Source of the DNA: a virus
Taxonomy: Duplodnaviria; Heunggongvirae; Uroviricota; Caudoviricetes
DNA length: 7,171 nt
Strand: one strand, 5' to 3'
Virus record (IMG/VR): IMGVR_UViG_2609459832_000011
Shown here: positions 1 to 7,171 of the stretch, piece by piece
How the letters are laid out: each line of letters starts with the position of its first letter
How positions within the stretch are numbered: the stretch's first letter is position 1
Position numbers and translations under genes: made by a program
Notes under the pieces: model-generated
Databases searched by the model: none
What the model was told of the DNA's origin: nothing
What the model saw: only the letters and a program-made list of their open reading frames with translations

Positions 1-1587
1 ACCGTGCGTTATCTGCCGGAGTCCTTTGAGATCCCCTGGAATCCGAACACCCGTACCGAGGTGAGCACCCTCTGCATCAGCCAGTTTCGCTACAGCGCAC
101 AAATCCGCCCTTCTTCCGTGGTGACCAAAGACTACACCTTTAAACGACCCGGCTGGGCAGGGCGTTTTGATCAGGAAGGCCAGTACCAGGATTACCAGCG
201 CACACAGTATGAAGTGTATGACTACCCCGGACGTTTCAAGGGTGCCCACGGGCAGAACTTTGCCCGCTGGCAGATGGATGGCTGGCGCAACAACGCAGAA
301 GTGGCGCGCGGAACAAGCCGTTCGCCGGAGATATGGCCGGGACGGCGAATTGTGCTGACGGGGCATCCGCAGGCGAACCTGAACCGGGAATGGCAGGTGG
401 TGGCGAGCGATCTTCACGGCGAACAGCCGCAGGCGGTACCGGGACGCAGGGGTTCAGGCACCACGCTGGATAACCACTTTGCGGTAATCCCGGCAGACCG
501 GACATGGCGGCCACAGCCGTTGCTGAAACCGCTGGTGGACGGCCCGCAGAGCGCCGTCGTGACGGGACCGGCAGGCGAGGAAATCTTCTGTGATGAACAT
601 GGCCGCGTGCGGGTGAAATTTAACTGGGACCGCTATAACCCGTCAAACCAGGAAAGTTCATGCTGGATCCGTGTGGCACAGGCGTGGGCAGGCACCGGCT
701 TTGGTAACCTGGCGATACCGCGTGTGGGTCAGGAGGTCATTGTGGACTTCCTCAACGGCGATCCGGACCAGCCGATCATTATGGGGCGTACCTACCACCA
801 GGAAAACCGCCCCCCCGGCAGCCTGCCGGGGACGAAGACGCAGATGACGATCCGCTCGAAAACCTATAAGGGCAGCGGGTTTAATGAACTGAAGTTTGAC
901 GATGCGACAGGGAGAGAACAGGTCTACATCCACGCGCAGAAGAACATGAACACCGAGGTGCTGAATAACCGCACCACTGATGTGATAAACAACCATGCCG
1001 AAAAAATAGGTAACAACCAGGCGATCACCGTTACCAATAACCAGATCCAGAACATTGGCGTTAATCAGATACAGACGGTTGGTGTCAACCAGGTGGAAAC
1101 GGTGGGCAGTAACCAGATTATCAAAGTGGGATCAAACCAGGTTGAAAAGGTGGGGATCATTCGTGCGCTGACGGTGGGTGTGGCTTACCAGACGACGGTA
1201 GGCGGCATTATGAATACCTCGGTGGCGTTGTTGCAGTCCTCACAGGTAGGGCTGCATAAATCACTGATGGTGGGAATGGGCTACAGCGTCAATGTGGGGA
1301 ATAACGTCACCTTCTCGGTGGGCAAGACAATGAAGGAAAACACCGGACAAACAGCAGTTTATTCTGCCGGTGAGCATCTTGAACTCTGCTGTGGTAAGGC
1401 AAGGCTGGTGCTGACGAAGGACGGAAGCATATTTCTCAATGGTACGCACATTCATCTGGAAGGGGAGTCGGATGTGAACGGTGATTCGCCAGTGATTAAC
1501 TGGAACTGTGGTGCCACACAACCTGTACCGGATGCGCCTGTGCCGAAAGATTTACCCCCCGGAATGCCGGATATGCGGCAATTTTGA
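1..1587 (+). CDS. vgrG: Type VI secretion spike protein VgrG, C-terminal part (5' end lies outside the window)
   Basis: The frame is open from base 1 to TGA at 1585..1587. The translation has VgrG hallmarks: a gp27/gp5-like region (FKRPGWAGRFDQEG, RWQMDGWRNNAEV, GRTYHQENRPP), Val-Gly octapeptide beta-helix repeats and a DUF2345-like C-terminal region. The GTG at 4 used by the ORF track is internal, not the real start. Confidence 0.9.
   Translation, partial: TVRYLPESFEIPWNPNTRTEVSTLCISQFRYSAQIRPSSVVTKDYTFKRPGWAGRFDQEGQYQDYQRTQYEVYDYPGRFKGAHGQNFARWQMDGWRNNAEVARGTSRSPEIWPGRRIVLTGHPQANLNREWQVVASDLHGEQPQAVPGRRGSGTTLDNHFAVIPADRTWRPQPLLKPLVDGPQSAVVTGPAGEEIFCDEHGRVRVKFNWDRYNPSNQESSCWIRVAQAWAGTGFGNLAIPRVGQEVIVDFLNGDPDQPIIMGRTYHQENRPPGSLPGTKTQMTIRSKTYKGSGFNELKFDDATGREQVYIHAQKNMNTEVLNNRTTDVINNHAEKIGNNQAITVTNNQIQNIGVNQIQTVGVNQVETVGSNQIIKVGSNQVEKVGIIRALTVGVAYQTTVGGIMNTSVALLQSSQVGLHKSLMVGMGYSVNVGNNVTFSVGKTMKENTGQTAVYSAGEHLELCCGKARLVLTKDGSIFLNGTHIHLEGESDVNGDSPVINWNCGATQPVPDAPVPKDLPPGMPDMRQF
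1006..1155 (+). repeat. Tandem octapeptide Val-Gly repeats inside vgrG (IGNNQAIT/VTNNQIQN/IGVNQIQT/VGVNQVET/VGSNQIIK/VGSNQVEK)
   Basis: Six consecutive 24-nt imperfect direct repeats, each encoding xxxNQxxx with V/I-G periodicity. This matches the classical vgr repeats of VgrG proteins. Confidence 0.65.
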
Positions 1588-1647
1588 GTCAGGTGCAAAA
1601 AATTAAAACGGAACTGGTGCAGTGACCAGATAAACCATATTAAAAGC

Positions 1648-1654
1648 AGAAGGA
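1648..1654 (+). promoter_or_regulatory. Ribosome-binding site for rhs (AGAAGGA, 8-nt spacer to ATG 1663)
   Basis: Purine-rich Shine-Dalgarno-like motif at the right distance upstream of the first ATG of the 1411-codon ORF. Confidence 0.5.
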
Positions 1655-1662
1655 ATTGATTC

Positions 1663-1932
1663 ATGGGCGGAAAACCGGCGGCGCGGCAGGGTGATATGAC
1701 CCGCAAGGGACTGGATATTGTGCAGGGTTCAGCGGGGGGGCTGATAGGTGCGCCGACGGGAGTGGCCTGTTCGGTATGTCCGGGAGGGATTACCTATGCT
1801 AACCCGGTGAACCCGCTGCTGGGTGCGAAGGTGCTGCCGGGCGAGACGGACCTTGCGCTGCCCGGCCCGCTGCCGTTTATTCTTTCCCGCGCCTACAGCA
1901 GCTACCGGACCAGAACACCCGCGCCGGTGGGG
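1663..1932 (+). other. PAAR-like N-terminal domain of Rhs (boundaries approximate)
   Basis: KPAARQGD motif followed by a Gly-rich stretch with paired cysteines (VACSVCPGG). This is the conserved Rhs N-terminal region that caps VgrG in characterised systems. Confidence 0.6.
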
Positions 1933-4900
1933 GTGTTTGGTCCCGGCTGGAAAGCGCCCTTCGATATCCGCTTACAGATACGCGATGAAGGCCTGATACT
2001 CAACGACAACGGCGGCAGGAGCATTCACTTTGAGCCGCTGTTTCCCGGCGAGATAAGCTACAGCCGCAGCGAGTCACTCTGGCTGGCGCGGGGCGGGGTG
2101 GCGGAGCAGCACAGTTCGCAGCCGCTAAGCGCACTCTGGCAGGTGCTGCCGGAAGATGTTCGCCTGAGTCCGCATGTGTACCTGGCGACAAACAGCCTTC
2201 AGGGGCCGTGGTGGATACTCAGCTGGCCGGAGCGGGTGCCGGGGGCGGACGAGGTGCTGCCGCCTCCGCCGCCCGCATACCGGGTGCTGACGGGGGTGGT
2301 GGACGGCTTCGGGCGGACGCTGACTTTCCACCGGGCAGCTAAGGGTGACGTGGCGGGCGCGGTGACGGGGGTGACGGACGGCGCGGGCCGCCGTTTTCAC
2401 CTGGCGCTGACCACGCAGGCGCAGCGGGCGGAAGCCTTCCGTAAACAGCGCGCCACGTCTTTATCTTCCCCTGCCGGTCCCCGTTCTGCTTCCTCTTCTT
2501 CTGCTTTCCCCGACACGCTGCCCGCCGGTACAGAATACGGTGCCGATAACGGTATCCGGCTGGAGGCGGTGTGGCTGACACACGACCCGGCATACCCGGA
2601 TGAACAGCCGACTGCGCCGCTGGCGCGCTACACGTACACGGCCAGCGGAGAACTGCGGGCGGTGTATGACCGCAGCGGGACGCAGGTTCGCGGGTTTACT
2701 TATGATGCGGAGCACGCCGGGCGGATGGTGGCACACCATTATGCGGGGAGGCCGGAGAGCCGCTACCGGTATGATGATACCGGGCGGGTGACGGAGCAGG
2801 TCAACCCGGAGGGGCTGGACTATCGCTTTGAGTACGGGCAGGACCGTGTGACCATCACGGACAGCCTGAACCGGCGGGAGGTGCTGTACACGGAGGGCGA
2901 AGGCGGCCTGAAGCGTGTGGTGAAGAAGGAGCATGCGGACGGCAGCATCACCCGCAGCGAGTATGATGAGGCGGGGAGGCTGAAGGCGCAGACGGATGCG
3001 GCGGGACGGCGGACGGAGTACCGACTGCATATGGCGTCTGGAAAGCTGACTTCAGTGATACTGCCGGATGGCAGGACGGTACGGTATGGCTATAACAGCC
3101 AGCGGCAGGTGACGTCGGTGACGTACCCGGACGGGCTTCGCAGCAGCCGGGAGTATGATGAGAAGGGAAGGCTGGCGGCGGAGACCTCACGCAGCGGTGA
3201 GACGACGAGTTACAGCTATGATGACCCGGCGAGTGAGCTGCCGACAGGGATACAGGACGCGACGGGCAGTACAAAACAGATGGCATGGAGCCGTTACGGT
3301 CAACTGCTGGCCTTTACGGACTGCTCGGGGTACACGACGCGGTATGAGTACGACCGGTACGGTCAACAAATCGCCGTTCACCGGGAAGAAGGCATCAGCA
3401 CTTACAGCAGTTATAACCCGCGTGGGCAAATGGTCAGTCAGAAGGATGCGCAGGGGCGTGAAACCCGTTATGAGTACAGCGCCGCAGGAGACCTGACAGC
3501 AACGGTATCACCGGACGGTAAACGCAGCACCATCGCATATGATAAACGCGGGCGTCCGGTGAGTGTGACGGAAGGTGGACTGACGCGCAGCATGGGGTAT
3601 GACGCTGCCGGGCGCATCACCGTGCTGACCAACGAGAACGGCAGCCAGTCCACGTTCCGGTATGACCCGGTGGACAGGCTGACTGAACAGCGCGGTTTTG
3701 ACGGCCGGACGCAACGTTACCACTATGACCTGACCGGAAAACTCACGCAGAGTGAAGACGAGGGGCTTATCACCCTCTGGCACTACGATGCGTCGGACCG
3801 CATCACGCACCGGACGGTGAACGGCGACCCGGCAGAGCAGTGGCAGTATGATGAGCACGGGTGGTTAACCACCCTCAGCCATACCTGTGAAGGCCACCGC
3901 GTGTCGGTCCACTACGGCTATGACGATAAAGGCCGCCTGACGGGTGAACGGCAGACGGTGGAGAACCCGGAGACAGGGGAGATGCTGTGGGAGCATGAGA
4001 CGGGGCATGCGTACAGCGAACAGGGGCTGGCGACCCGTCAGGAGCCGGACGGTCTGCCGCCGGTGGAGTGGCTGACGTATGGCAGCGGTTATCTTGCGGG
4101 GATGAAGCTGGGCGGAACACCGCTGGTCGAGTACACGCGGGACCGGCTGCACCGTGAGACGGTGCGCAGCTTCGGCAGCATGGCAGGCAGTAATGCAGCA
4201 TATGAACTGACCAGCACATACACCCTCACAGGGCAGCTACAGAGCAGGCACCTGAACCTCCCGCAGCTTGACCGGGACTACGACTGGAACGACAACGGAC
4301 AGCTAATCCGCATCAGCGGCCCGCAGGAGAGCCGGGAGTACCGTTACAGTGACACGGGAAGGCTGACGGGCGTCCACACCACGGCGGCGAACCTGGATAT
4401 CGATATCCCGTATGCGACGGACCCGGCAGGAAACCGGCTGCCGGACCCGGAACTGCACCCGGACAGCACGCTCACGGCGTGGCCGGATAACCGCATCGCG
4501 GAAGATGCGCACTATGTCTACCGCCACGATGAATACGGCAGGCTGGCGGAGAAGACGGACCTCATCCCGGAAGGGGTTATCCGGATGCACGACGAGCGGA
4601 CCCACCACTACCATTACGACAGCCAGCACCGTCTGGTGTTCTACACGCGGATACAGCACGGCGAACCACAGGTGGAGAGCCGGTACCTCTATGACCCGCT
4701 GGGCCGCCGGACGGGAAAACGGGTATGGCGGCGGGAGCGTGACCTGACGGGGTGGATGTCGCTGTCGCGTAAACCGGAGGAGACCTGGTACGGGTGGGAC
4801 GGTGACAGGCTGACCACTGTACAGACCCAACAGACAAGAATCCAGACGGTATACCAGCCGGGAAGCTTCACGCCGCTCCTGAGAATCGAAACAGAGAATG

Positions 4901-5898
4901 GCGAACAGGCGAAGGCGCGGCACCGGAGCCTGGCGGAGGTGTTGCAGGAGGACACGGGGGTGACGCTTCCGGCGGAGCTGGCGGTGATGCTGGGGAGGCT
5001 GGAGCGGGAACTGCGTGCGGGAGCGGTGAGTGCGGAGAGTGAGGCATGGCTTGCGCAGTGCGGGCTGACGGTGGAGCAGATGGAAAGCCAGATGGAGGCG
5101 GAATACATCCCGGAGCGGAGGCTGCATCTTTACCACTGTGACCACCGGGGACTGCCGCAGGCGCTCATCAGCCCGGAAGGGGAAACGGCGTGGTGCGGGG
5201 AGTATGACGAGTGGGGGAACCAGCTTAATGAGGAGAACCCGCATCACCTGTACCAGCCGTACCGGCTGCCGGGGCAGCAGTATGATGAGGAGTCGGGACT
5301 GTATTACAACCGTCACCGGTACTACGATCCGTTGCAGGGGCGGTATATCACCCAGGATCCGATAGGGTTGAAGGGGGGAATAAATCTATACACGTATCCA
5401 CTGGCACCAATACGTTACACTGATCCACTGGGGTTAGAACGAGTTATAAGTGTATATGGGCCTCCCGCTCCAGACCGGGCAGGTGCTGAAACTCCTCTTG
5501 TTCTTACTGATATGACTGGAGGAGTGACTATTTATTATGATCCTGAAACAGGTGATTCAATGACTTTTGATAGTAGCAATAGAATTGATCGTCGTTCTCA
5601 ACGTGGTGCTGGTGATCCATATACAGGTGAAGTCGTTGGTTGTGAGACAAATGAATCAGGAATATCGGCAGCATATGGCACAACGAAGATCTATACTACA
5701 GATACTAGAGCAAGATGGCTACATGGTGGGGGATCATCGTTGCGCGATCCTTATGCTCCTCGACAAGGCTGGAAACCAACTATGGGATGTACCCGTGCAC
5801 AGAATGAAGATGTAGATGAGTTGTGTAAGAAAGTGACAAGTTGGATGTATTCGCATCCTGGAGAGAGAATTAGATATGAACGTTTTAAGACACGTTAA
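1663..5898 (+). CDS. rhs: Rhs family polymorphic toxin: N-terminal PAAR-like domain, RHS/YD-repeat core and variable C-terminal toxin tip
   Basis: 1411-codon ORF from ATG 1663 to TAA 5896..5898. The N-terminus [12 protein letters not shown]...[14 protein letters not shown] contains a literal PAAR motif. Many YDxxGR(L/V) repeats follow. The hyperconserved core end is [38 protein letters not shown], then a divergent AT-rich tip. Confidence 0.95.
2626..4710 (+). repeat. RHS/YD-repeat region (protein-level repeats forming the Rhs shell; boundaries approximate)
   Basis: Recurrent YxYDxxGRL-type motifs, e.g. [97 protein letters not shown]. Confidence 0.7.
5422..5436 (+). other. DPxGL motif (DPLGL) marking the end of the Rhs core and the likely autoproteolytic release site of the C-terminal toxin
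   Basis: The sequence [10 protein letters not shown] closes the conserved core. The DNA composition switches from GC-rich to AT-rich within about 50 nt of this motif. Confidence 0.8.
5437..5895 (+). other. Rhs C-terminal toxin tip (153 aa) with a YkuD-like L,D-transpeptidase catalytic signature
   Basis: His at 5722..5724 (WLHGGG), then 18 residues, then T-M-G-C-T-R with Cys at 5788..5790 and Arg at 5794..5796, then NEDVDEL at 5803..5823. Compare the YkuD consensus HG-x(14-18)-[ST]xGC[IV]R-x-N[KE]D[VI]xEL. Confidence 0.65.
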
Positions 5899-6109
5899 TG
5901 CGATTAACATGGGAGTGTGCATTCTAATTTTGGTTATTGGATGTGCAAATGCTAAAGTTCTTAAACGATGTATATTACCCGCTCCTGATGGTGGCGTAGA
6001 AAAACTATCAAAACCCAACTTACATGGAGTAATTAAAAAAGTTGATTTGAACACAAATGAAGCGGAAATTAAAATAAAAGAGGGGGGGGGCAGTGAGTTT
6101 TATTTTTAA
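5876..6109 (+). CDS. Putative Rhs immunity lipoprotein (77 aa as written; possibly truncated by a frameshift at the G9 tract)
   Basis: ATG 5876 overlaps the rhs 3' end by 23 nt. GGAGAG lies upstream at 5860..5865. The N-terminus [23 protein letters not shown]|ANAK has a basic n-region, a hydrophobic core and a lipobox (V-I-G-C, Cys codon 5942..5944). The ORF is AT-rich like the toxin tip and sits where Rhs immunity genes normally lie. Confidence 0.55.
6082..6090 (+). repeat. G9 homopolymeric tract inside the 3' end of the immunity-candidate ORF
   Basis: Nine consecutive G in otherwise strongly AT-rich DNA. A -1 G change shifts translation into a frame that stays open to TGA 6267..6269. Confidence 0.9.
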
Positions 6110-6309
6110 TGAGGAAACATTGTATTTTACTGTTTTTGGTGGGGATTTTATTATGGATGATTTAAAAAAAGTAAAAAATACGGAAGCATGGGTATGGTAT
6201 AAAAATTGCGATAGTAAAAATAAAAATGTGGCAGTTGAACTTCTTCAAATCTACGAATTGCATCAATGAAAAATATAGTTAAATAGAGGAGGTTATTAAT
6301 AGCAGGAAA

Positions 6310-6333
6310 AGCATCACGTGATGCTGATTTTTT
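6310..6333 (+). terminator. Candidate rho-independent terminator (AGCATCAC/GTGATGCT palindrome followed by a T6 run)
   Basis: Perfect inverted repeat at 6310..6325 (aGCATCACGTGATGCt) followed by GATTTTTTG, with the T-run at 6328..6333. It lies downstream of the rhs/immunity module and upstream of the H-rpt ORF. Confidence 0.45.
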
Positions 6334-6436
6334 GCACTAAATAATTCGCATTTTATGTTTAAAAATTGAGATATTCCTTATTACCTAAAGCTGTTTTTTA
6401 TTGCTTATACATGATCAAATACTCCTTACATAATTA

Positions 6437-6441
6437 AGGAG
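6437..6441 (+). promoter_or_regulatory. Ribosome-binding site for the H-rpt transposase ORF (AGGAG, 6-nt spacer to ATG 6448)
   Basis: Canonical Shine-Dalgarno core in TAAGGAGAACAAAATG. Confidence 0.6.
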
Positions 6442-6447
6442 AACAAA

Positions 6448-7171
6448 ATGGAACTTAAAAAATTGATGGAACATATTTCTGTTATCCCCGATTACAGACA
6501 AGCCTGGAAAGTGGAACATAAATTATCGGATATTCTACTGTTGACTATTTGTGCCGTTATTTCTGGTGCAGAAGGCTGGGAAGATATAGAGGATTTTGGG
6601 GAAACACATCCCGATGTTTTGAAGTGATATGGTGATTTTGAAAATGGTATTCCTGTTCACGATACTATTGCCAGAGTTGTATCCTGTATCAGTCCTGCAA
6701 AATTTCATGAGTGCTTTATTAACTGGATGCGTGACTGCCATTCTTCAGATGATAAAGACGTCATCGCAATTGATGGAAAAACGCTCCGGCACTCTTATGA
6801 CAAGAGTCGCCGCAGGGGAGCGATTCATGTCATTAGTGCGTTCTCAACAATGCACAGTCTGGTCATCGGACAGATCAGGACGGATGAGAAATCTAATGAG
6901 ATTACAGCTATCCCAGAACTTCTTAACATGCTGGATATTAAAGGAAAAATCATCACAACTGATGCGATGGGTTGCCAGAAAGATATTGCAGAGAAGATAC
7001 AAAAACAGGGCGGTGATTATTTATTCGCGGTAAAAGGAAACCAGGGGCGGCTTAATAAAGCCTTTGAGGAAAAATTTCCGCTGAAAGAATTAAATAATCC
7101 AGAGCATGACAGTTACGCAATCAGTGAAAAGAGTCACGGCAGAGAAGAAATCCGTCTTCATATTGTTTGCG
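6448..7171 (+). pseudogene. H-repeat-associated (H-rpt) ISAs1-family transposase gene interrupted by an in-frame TGA at codon 60 (6625..6627); 3' end outside the window
   Basis: The translation [116 protein letters not shown]... matches the H-rpt proteins found in E. coli Rhs elements, recalled from memory. The same frame stays open from 6628 to the window end. The track ORF 6629..7033 is in a different frame and is not the real gene. Confidence 0.8.

Follow-up and report, generated by a model that had tools for sequence, protein, structure and literature searches.

Within a single rhs gene of the locus described here, the DNA passes abruptly from a GC-rich to an AT-rich composition, which raises the question of what is joined at this break, where exactly the two parts meet, and by which route they came together. 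A preliminary description of the sequence had placed the break at 5380-5440, at the boundary marked by the DPxGL motif, and had read that motif as the point at which a horizontally acquired toxin and immunity module was recombined onto the core. The stretch of DNA analysed (the window, 7,171 nucleotides) carries the following features.

1..1587, + strand: 3' part of vgrG, encoding the T6SS spike (ORF 4..1587; Pfam Phage_GPD, Phage_base_V and Gp5_trimer_C)
1663..5898, + strand: rhs, an intact ORF of 1411 aa (Pfam DUF6531, 12 RHS_repeat stretches and RHS)
1663..5379, + strand: GC-rich conserved Rhs core (GC 0.636, GC3 0.757), mosaic between alleles and loci by divergence profiles
5356..5370, + strand: first aspartyl-protease motif, DPIGL, residues 1232-1236
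5374..5380, + strand: GC3 change-point; DNA identity to other Rhs tips begins to decay here as well (LLR 90.9; alignments)
5380..5421, + strand: inter-motif codons for 14 residues, a core-like peptide written in AT-rich, tip-type codons
5422..5436, + strand: second motif, DPLGL, residues 1254-1258, where the core ends at the protein level
5437..5895, + strand: C-terminal toxin domain of 153 aa with a predicted YkuD (L,D-transpeptidase/carboxypeptidase) fold (Pfam, homologues, structural model, Foldseek)
5722-5724 and 5788-5790, + strand: predicted catalytic His1354 and Cys1376, conserved in the homologue alignment
5876..6269, + strand: immunity-like gene with a lipobox (LVIGC, Cys23), split in the window
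6270..6301, no strand: AT-rich 3' end of the variable cassette
6302..7171, + strand: left part of an ISAs1-family (H-rpt) element, the right-hand homology arm, with a transposase ORF from 6448

The locus and its compositional break

The vgrG gene runs past the 5' end of the window, and VgrG is annotated at the matching locus of E. coli strain 2013C-3181, to which positions 4400-6450 are 100% identical. In that strain the locus forms the end of the T6SS-1 cluster, with tssF, tssE, tssC, vgrG and rhs followed by ISAs1, yafV, ivy and fadE; its rhs copy is split by an IS3 element that is absent from the window. The Rhs protein contains the YD/RHS shell repeats (Pfam RHS_repeat, 12 stretches, E 1.6e-74; TIGR01643 for the YD repeat), and its residues 1-1258 match the NCBIfam RHS_core equivalog NF041261 with 2609 bits against a cutoff of 2000. 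At its N-terminus, read over 11 residues, DUF6531 is the only Pfam match and no PAAR model was found; vgrG adjoins directly upstream. Two short ORFs (5876-6109 and 6093-6269) are listed after rhs, and they are followed by the ISAs1 element. The transposase of the latter (DDE_Tnp_1_assoc, E 2.5e-18; annotated as ISAs1 by RefSeq in identical DNA) is a pseudogene in the window, interrupted by an in-frame TGA at 6625-6627, and the copy is 91-98% identical to those behind other Rhs loci. In strains LY180 and LR-46, tandem partial and complete ISAs1 copies stand after the tip. Circular records holding the rhs locus only also exist (pL65-4, 6.8 kb; Klebsiella, 2.3 kb), without replication genes, and may be assembly artefacts.

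The order of parts, the GC discontinuity and the downstream ISAs1/H-rpt are those of E. coli K-12 RhsA-E, and the preliminary description was right to name a GC-rich core with an AT-rich core extension as the known Rhs layout, which continues with an immunity ORF and H-rpt/ISAs1. The break as such is textbook Rhs architecture and already known. Unlike the K-12 Rhs, the window copy immediately follows vgrG at the end of the T6SS-1 cluster, and its tip is a predicted YkuD-fold toxin accompanied by a lipoprotein-like immunity gene.

The sharp switch from GC-rich to AT-rich DNA is real. Sliding-window GC and GC3, proposed earlier as a check, are far from uniform across the break: in 200-nt windows GC falls at 5300-5500, from 0.62-0.70 at 4900-5300 to 0.44-0.27 at 5400-6400, and GC3 over 30 codons in the rhs frame goes from about 0.8 to 0.1-0.3. 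The maximum-likelihood single change-point on GC3 lies before codon 1239, at nt 5377, with a 2-log support interval of 5374-5380, separating a GC3 of 0.758 on the left from 0.231 on the right, and its log-likelihood ratio is 90.9, where 200 shuffles gave 2.7 on average and 6.6 at most. Chance and an assembly chimera were rejected as causes of the break because of this ratio (LLR 91) and because the junction is common to about 1000 genomes. By region, GC is 0.636 in the core (1663-5379), 0.421 at 5380-5436, 0.437 in the toxin (5437-5898), 0.327 in the immunity gene, 0.27 in the spacer and 0.41 in ISAs1, and 0.368 across 5437-6447. Flanking housekeeping and T6SS genes at the identical locus of 2013C-3181 have a GC3 of 0.53-0.66, so that the core exceeds the host level and the tip falls far short of it. 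The codon styles named for the two parts also hold, with CTG (72), CGG (48) and GGC (37) in the core and AGA, ATA, GGT and CGT used in the tip.

The position of the break relative to the protease motifs is a different matter. The core end fits the pattern DPxG-(17/18)-PxxxxDPxGL, with DPIGL at 1232-1236, 17 residues, and the ten-residue element at 1249-1258 that ends in the second motif; TIGR03696 spans residues 1181-1258, and the NCBIfam core model likewise stops at 1258. The GC3 break falls between the two motifs, three codons past DPIGL and 15 codons (45 nt) before the D of DPLGL. The break described earlier exists, but the change-point lies at the 5' edge of the 5380-5440 interval, upstream of DPLGL. 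Two motifs with the same spacing are known from the TcC-type Rhs1 of Photorhabdus laumondii, where two DPLGL motifs lie 17 residues apart, the catalytic Asp belongs to the second, cleavage occurs after the second and the toxin follows immediately (PMC8636562). By analogy with that protein, autocleavage of the Rhs in the window is predicted after L1258. The Photorhabdus toxin is an ADP-ribosyltransferase, unlike the peptidoglycan enzyme predicted here, and for the window protein cleavage is predicted from the motif.

Limits of homology and exchange of the cassette

The window was compared with eight E. coli Rhs loci bearing unrelated tips, including the K-12-type rhsB/yhhH and rhsC/ybfC. BLASTN homology to these loci stops at 5379-5404 and restarts at 6301-6329, which leaves about 120-145 nt to the ISAs1 start codon; for rhsB/yhhH and rhsC/ybfC the alignment with the window ends at 5379-5403 and is taken up again at about 6302-6329. 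Mean DNA identity is 0.84-0.87 up to 5379, 0.62 at 5380-5403, 0.35 at 5404-5421, 0.78 over the DPLGL codons (5422-5436) and 0.26, the random level, after 5436, and the decay of similarity therefore begins at the compositional change-point. The loss of identity exactly after DPLGL that had been expected was thus found in part, as identity is random after 5436 but has been decaying since 5380. The DPLGL codons are a last island of identity, kept by protein constraint.

The same upstream offset is found in most other tips. Six of eight other E. coli tips have their GC3 change-point 11-17 codons ahead of the D of DPxGL; in a further one (L004) it is ambiguous, at +10 codons with support from -11 to +11, and another (L007) is short, GC-richer and without a clear break. 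Two Acidovorax Rhs genes with a related toxin have their change-point 27-28 codons before the D, and the offset overall is upstream in 7/9 E. coli tips and in both Acidovorax genes. The peptide at the junction, NLYxYPLxP, resembles E. coli-type core ends more closely than those of the distant toxin relatives, and the site of the ancestral fusion is therefore uncertain.

The tip and its immunity gene form a unit that is exchanged independently of the core. The segment 5405-6300 is present in 1026 of 5426 complete E. coli genomes (19%), with an identity of at least 99% in 1021 of them, and the cores to which it is joined in these carriers diverge by 4-6%, in patches. In all, 5,334 E. coli genomes gave matches, with roughly 38,000 Rhs core ends among them. 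Strain LY180 has the same T6SS-1/yafV locus (hcp, vgrG, rhs, ISAs1, yafV) and is 95% identical to window positions 1-5399, which cover vgrG and the rhs core, but carries another tip and immunity gene. Conversely, strain D3 carries the same tip, at 99.2% identity, on an rhs gene at another locus (ydcC/DUF3969 ... pptA/nhoA), where a different strain has the dsORF-h1 tip. In a four-way alignment the first 400 nt of the D3 gene match the local allele exactly and differ from the window at 34 positions, while D3, from nt 4863 at the latest to the end of the tip, shows 0-5 differences per 200 nt to the window, compared with 19-63 per 200 nt to the local allele. Differences from the window restart at 6307-6350, inside ISAs1. 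In this exchange, the one that could be mapped, the left crossover was thus 500 nt or more deep in the core, the right one was in ISAs1, and neither coincides with DPxGL. The D3 crossovers agree with experiments in Salmonella, in which a 522-bp stretch with 95% core identity served for recombination between main and orphan rhs genes (PMC3967940), and with a comparative study in which evidence independent of GC content showed that Rhs cores and tips are decoupled (PMC2935791).

These observations bear directly on the claim that the module was acquired horizontally. That it is a swapped unit is borne out by LY180, by D3 and by its presence in 19% of genomes; composition alone, however, is no proof of foreign origin, and no donor was found. 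The protein database returned copies of the same allele from E. coli, Shigella and Salmonella, and beyond these only relatives at 53% identity or less, the closest of them in GC-rich hosts. A scan of genome contigs gave relatives from Betaproteobacteria, Verrucomicrobia, Stenotrophomonas and Negativicutes that are 37-60% identical over partial segments, none of them AT-rich enough to be the donor. A phage search for the toxin gave no phage carrier. The match to NZ_OL790696 was uninformative as evidence of a plasmid carrier, the record being chromosome-sized, and the apparent 56% and 43% relatives on CP044307 and CP044308 were set aside as well: CP044307, the one of the two that was examined, turned out to hold the window's cassette, in an assembly full of errors and with 7% gaps. 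The CP044307 case also shows that assemblies may differ in their homopolymers through error. A horizontal origin from an AT-rich donor is suggested by the distribution and composition of the cassette.

The toxin tip and the immunity-like gene

The tip is assigned to the YkuD fold, marginally by sequence and also from homologues and structure. The isolated tip scores 25.1 bits against Pfam YkuD (PF03734; cutoff 23.4, E 3e-5), the full-length Rhs reaches 20.9 bits, under the cutoff, and 13 of 15 toxin homologues match YkuD; none of the 15 matches DUF2778 at E up to 10. An AlphaFold model built on 15 sequences has a mean pLDDT of 74, rising to 84-94 in most of its folded domain, and its six best Foldseek matches in the PDB all have the Ldt fold (4xzz Csd6, 5bmq, 7o21 Bd1075, 1zat, 8da2), the top list comprising Csd6, a YkuD protein, Bd1075, an E. 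faecium Ldt and an A. baumannii Ldt. The probabilities of the best matches are 0.84-1.0, at a TM of about 0.45; this TM and the marginal sequence score (25 bits) speak against the assignment. Searched by sequence against PDB chains, the toxin gave chance matches only (E above 0.7), and NCBIfam holds no model for it. RefSeq labels fragments of the tip 'L,D-transpeptidase family protein'.

The predicted catalytic residues lie within a conserved block, RW[ILV]HGGG...T plus ten further residues. The canonical YkuD motif, quoted as H-x(14-17)-[S/T]-H-G-C-h (PMC9638812), is not matched literally, as the tip reads H1354-x18-T-M-G-C1376-T-R, with a spacing one residue longer. The second His of [S/T]HGC is Met in the tip and variable in its relatives, while His and Cys are conserved with a His-Cys spacing of 22, and the tip thus has a variant of the YkuD motif.

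Related toxins (37-60% identity) stand directly behind DPxGL on Rhs/YD proteins of Variovorax, Acidovorax, Curvibacter, Nitrosomonas, Verrucomicrobia and Stenotrophomonas, while the relatives in Negativicutes are small free-standing proteins. In the Acidovorax Rhs genes GC falls from 0.63-0.64 to 0.44-0.45. Fusions of L,D-peptidase toxins to Rhs have been noted earlier (bioRxiv 10.1101/2020.02.18.954545; PMC3482391). The tip resembles Tlde1, a Salmonella T6SS effector (DUF2778), in being a T6SS-linked Cys/His toxin of L,D-transpeptidase fold for which periplasmic action is expected and in having an immunity gene with an export signal, and Rhs fusions of such domains have been reported. Unlike Tlde1, the tip has no DUF2778 match and groups with YkuD proper, its His-Cys spacing is 22 compared with 10 in Tlde1a (H121, C131), and its immunity protein is unrelated to any named family. 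A phmmer search of the toxin against PDB chains, Tlde1a (7UMA) included, gave no match to Tlde1a, and the Foldseek match to 7uma is weak (E 0.99).

The immunity-like gene has an intact 130-aa ORF in other strains, which have a G8 tract; in the window a G9 tract at 6082-6090 frameshifts it, giving rise to the two ORFs mentioned above, and decay of the locus may therefore be under way. The immunity protein, too, lacks a model in NCBIfam, and in Pfam it comes just under the threshold of DUF4367 (21.7 against 22.1) and reaches no named family above threshold. In view of the predicted fold and topology, its lipobox is consistent with a periplasm-facing immunity protein against a peptidoglycan-directed toxin. 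The toxin, in turn, probably acts on peptidoglycan stem peptides, as the fold and the exported, lipoprotein-type immunity candidate suggest. Rhs cages are usually said to hold toxins that act in the cytoplasm (PMC12994826), which runs contrary to this periplasmic reading.

How the junction arose and what it means

The explanation that we favour, held with high confidence when all its parts are taken together, is that the window represents the effector end of a T6SS-1 cluster of E. coli, consisting of vgrG, rhs, the immunity gene and ISAs1/H-rpt, and that the break at 5377-5380 is the junction of a multi-copy GC-rich core with an AT-rich toxin and immunity cassette of roughly 0.9 kb (5380-6301). 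Immediately behind the first DPxGL motif the cassette begins with a codon style of its own, and it thus brings along its own version of the last 19 core residues, including DPLGL and the predicted cleavage site. It would be swapped between strains and loci by homologous recombination in its flanks rather than at DPxGL, the left flank being anywhere in the core and the right one ISAs1/H-rpt or beyond. On established Rhs biology, the protein would be loaded on VgrG and fired by the T6SS with its tip encapsulated in the YD shell; the aspartyl-protease plug would cut after L1258 and free the 153-aa YkuD-fold enzyme. To judge from the fold and the immunity topology, this enzyme would act in the periplasm of the target on stem peptides of peptidoglycan, and the lipoprotein encoded downstream would shield the producer.

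That the cassette was joined exactly at the DPxGL codons, used as the recombination point, was the original claim and is very improbable. Protein conservation and the NCBIfam core model do reach as far as DPLGL (residue 1258) and no further, DNA identity stays above random up to 5436, and the L004 tip, with its wide support of -11 to +11, has its change-point at +10 codons. Against this, the GC3 change-point of the window is at 5377 with tight support (5374-5380), identity has already dropped to 0.62 and then 0.35 before DPLGL, and most other tips have an upstream offset. A 15-nt motif is, moreover, too short for RecA-dependent exchange. The change-point lies between the motifs, the D3 crossover is at least 500 nt upstream with its right-hand counterpart in ISAs1, and experimental recombination went through 522 bp of core homology (PMC3967940).

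The break could also have been made in situ, with GC-biased conversion lifting the GC of a multi-copy core while a single-copy tip drifts towards AT or has its AT-richness maintained to silence it or hold its expression low. Cores are indeed mosaic between alleles and loci, core GC3 (0.76) exceeds that of neighbour genes (0.53-0.66), and the break lies just where shared homology ends, but the GC3 of the tip (0.23) is far under that of host genes, and the cassette is at least 99% identical in about 1000 genomes, so it does not drift in place. Its distribution is patchy (19% of genomes) and covers two loci, and the same drop occurs in Acidovorax Rhs genes with a core GC of 0.63-0.64. The genome GC of Acidovorax is close to that of its Rhs core. 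Such an origin in place is quite unlikely; GC-biased conversion may have contributed to the high GC of the core but cannot account for the tip. A third route, C-terminal displacement as modelled by Jackson et al. (PMC2935791), in which a single crossover of a circular intermediate of core fragment plus tip shunts the old tip downstream, is unlikely here, if slightly less so. Small circular rhs-only records (pL65-4, Klebsiella) and the tandem ISAs1 copies of LY180 and LR-46 speak for it, although the circles lack replication genes and may be artefacts, low-quality 'plasmid' records occurring in the same collection. Neither a displaced core fragment nor an orphan tip stands between immunity gene and ISAs1 in the window, the right boundary of the cassette is ISAs1, and yafV directly follows ISAs1 in the matching genome; double crossover or conversion therefore fits better than single-crossover displacement at this locus, while displacement may still figure in the history of the cassette.

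Flank-mediated exchange of the cassette places the locus among the polymorphic-toxin systems, in which tips and cores are decoupled, toxin and immunity gene travel together and recombination uses core homology (Jackson et al. 2009, PMC2935791; Zhang et al. 2012, PMC3482391; Koskiniemi et al. 2014, PMC3967940). The core mosaicism seen here involves two chromosomal loci, a situation considered infrequent by Jackson et al. (PMC2935791). We tentatively suggest, at somewhat less than even probability, that the mobile Rhs unit starts directly after the first DPxGL, each cassette having its own second Asp motif and cleavage context in about 19 tip-type codons, that the final strand of the protease plug would evolve together with the toxin that the plug sets free, and that exchangeable homology would truly end, on its 3' side, at the hyperconserved stretch whose last residues are DPxGLxGG. 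A mobile unit of this kind may already be implicit in older descriptions of the boundary between core and extension.

The new points are modest: the junction consistently lies between the two protease motifs, and a common E. coli tip is assigned to a YkuD-type, probably periplasm-acting toxin. Since the junction falls between the motifs and exchange takes place in the flanks, pipelines and typing schemes that cut tips at DPxGL split a unit that travels together. The correction gained is that the junction of composition and homology lies between the two DPxGL motifs, with exchange in the core and ISAs1 flanks. The tip found in 19% of complete E. coli genomes would accordingly be seen as a YkuD-fold, probably peptidoglycan-targeting toxin, housed in an Rhs cage of the kind usually thought to hold toxins that act in the cytoplasm.

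The immunity-like gene and its G tract

The immunity part of the cassette lies in the window as follows:

5876-6269, immunity-like gene, with a G9 tract at 6082-6090

The G9 tract frameshifts this gene into ORFs of 77 and 58 aa, while the G8 form found in other strains encodes an unbroken lipoprotein of 130 aa. The rhs ORF, unlike the frameshifted immunity-like gene, is unbroken in the window. The exact 70-nt version with G9 occurs in 52 of 1015 complete genomes, the remainder being mostly 1 nt shorter; some genomes are 2 nt shorter, and there the annotation gives two ORFs. The G9 frameshift may represent true slippage, decay of the locus or a homopolymer sequencing error.

In E. coli BL21-AI (NZ_CP047231.1), the immunity part (window 5911-6300) is the only portion of the cassette found, so the toxin seems to be missing from this strain and its immunity gene to be an orphan. 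REL606 (NC_012967.1) has a match to a short immunity probe at about position 242,165, in a comparison limited to the immunity part.

Insertion sequences at the locus

The ISAs1/H-rpt transposase contains an in-frame TGA at 6625-6627 (K-stop-YGDFENG...) and is therefore a pseudogene in the window, as it also is in the RefSeq annotation of strain 2013C-3181. In that strain, an insertion of the IS3 family, which is lacking in the window, splits rhs (positions 5003-7100 of the 2013C-3181 locus, set against the window from 1663 on). The two sequences are otherwise identical over window positions 4000-7000, and 5' of position 4000 they diverge, with as many as 45 differences per 200 nt. Strain LR-46 (NZ_AP027537.1) carries an IS21-like insertion, ISEc62, just a few bases 3' of the compositional junction, and this element parts the tip from the core. 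The BLAST pieces on either side of ISEc62 share an overlap of 5 bp (window 5400-5404), which suggests a target-site duplication.

Plasmid records with rhs-locus DNA

Two small circular records deposited as plasmids, pL65-4 (NZ_CP034740.1, 6.8 kb) and a Klebsiella record (NZ_CP054971.1, 2.3 kb), consist of rhs-locus DNA only, with either a core fragment and a small ORF or yhhH and a HEAT-repeat gene. Both were typed as non-mobilizable, and no replication gene is present among their annotated CDSs (just 5 and 2, respectively). Either these records are products of misassembly, or they represent the episomal core-plus-tip circles that Jackson et al. (PMC2935791) postulated.

Another plasmid-collection record, CP044307.1, had the look of a 56%-identical relative of the toxin, but its DNA is that of the same cassette (87% identity, 7% gaps), assembled with many errors. 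This case is a warning on comparing public assemblies at the homopolymer level.

Mosaic Rhs cores

Comparison of the window core (1663-5379) with three other Rhs loci reveals a patchwork between the T6SS-1/yafV and pptA/ydcC loci. Window positions 4063-4462 are identical to the pptA-locus allele, versus 59 differences from the LY180 allele of the window's own locus. Such patchwork cores imply that inter-locus conversion is frequent, whereas Jackson et al. (PMC2935791) judged it to be infrequent.
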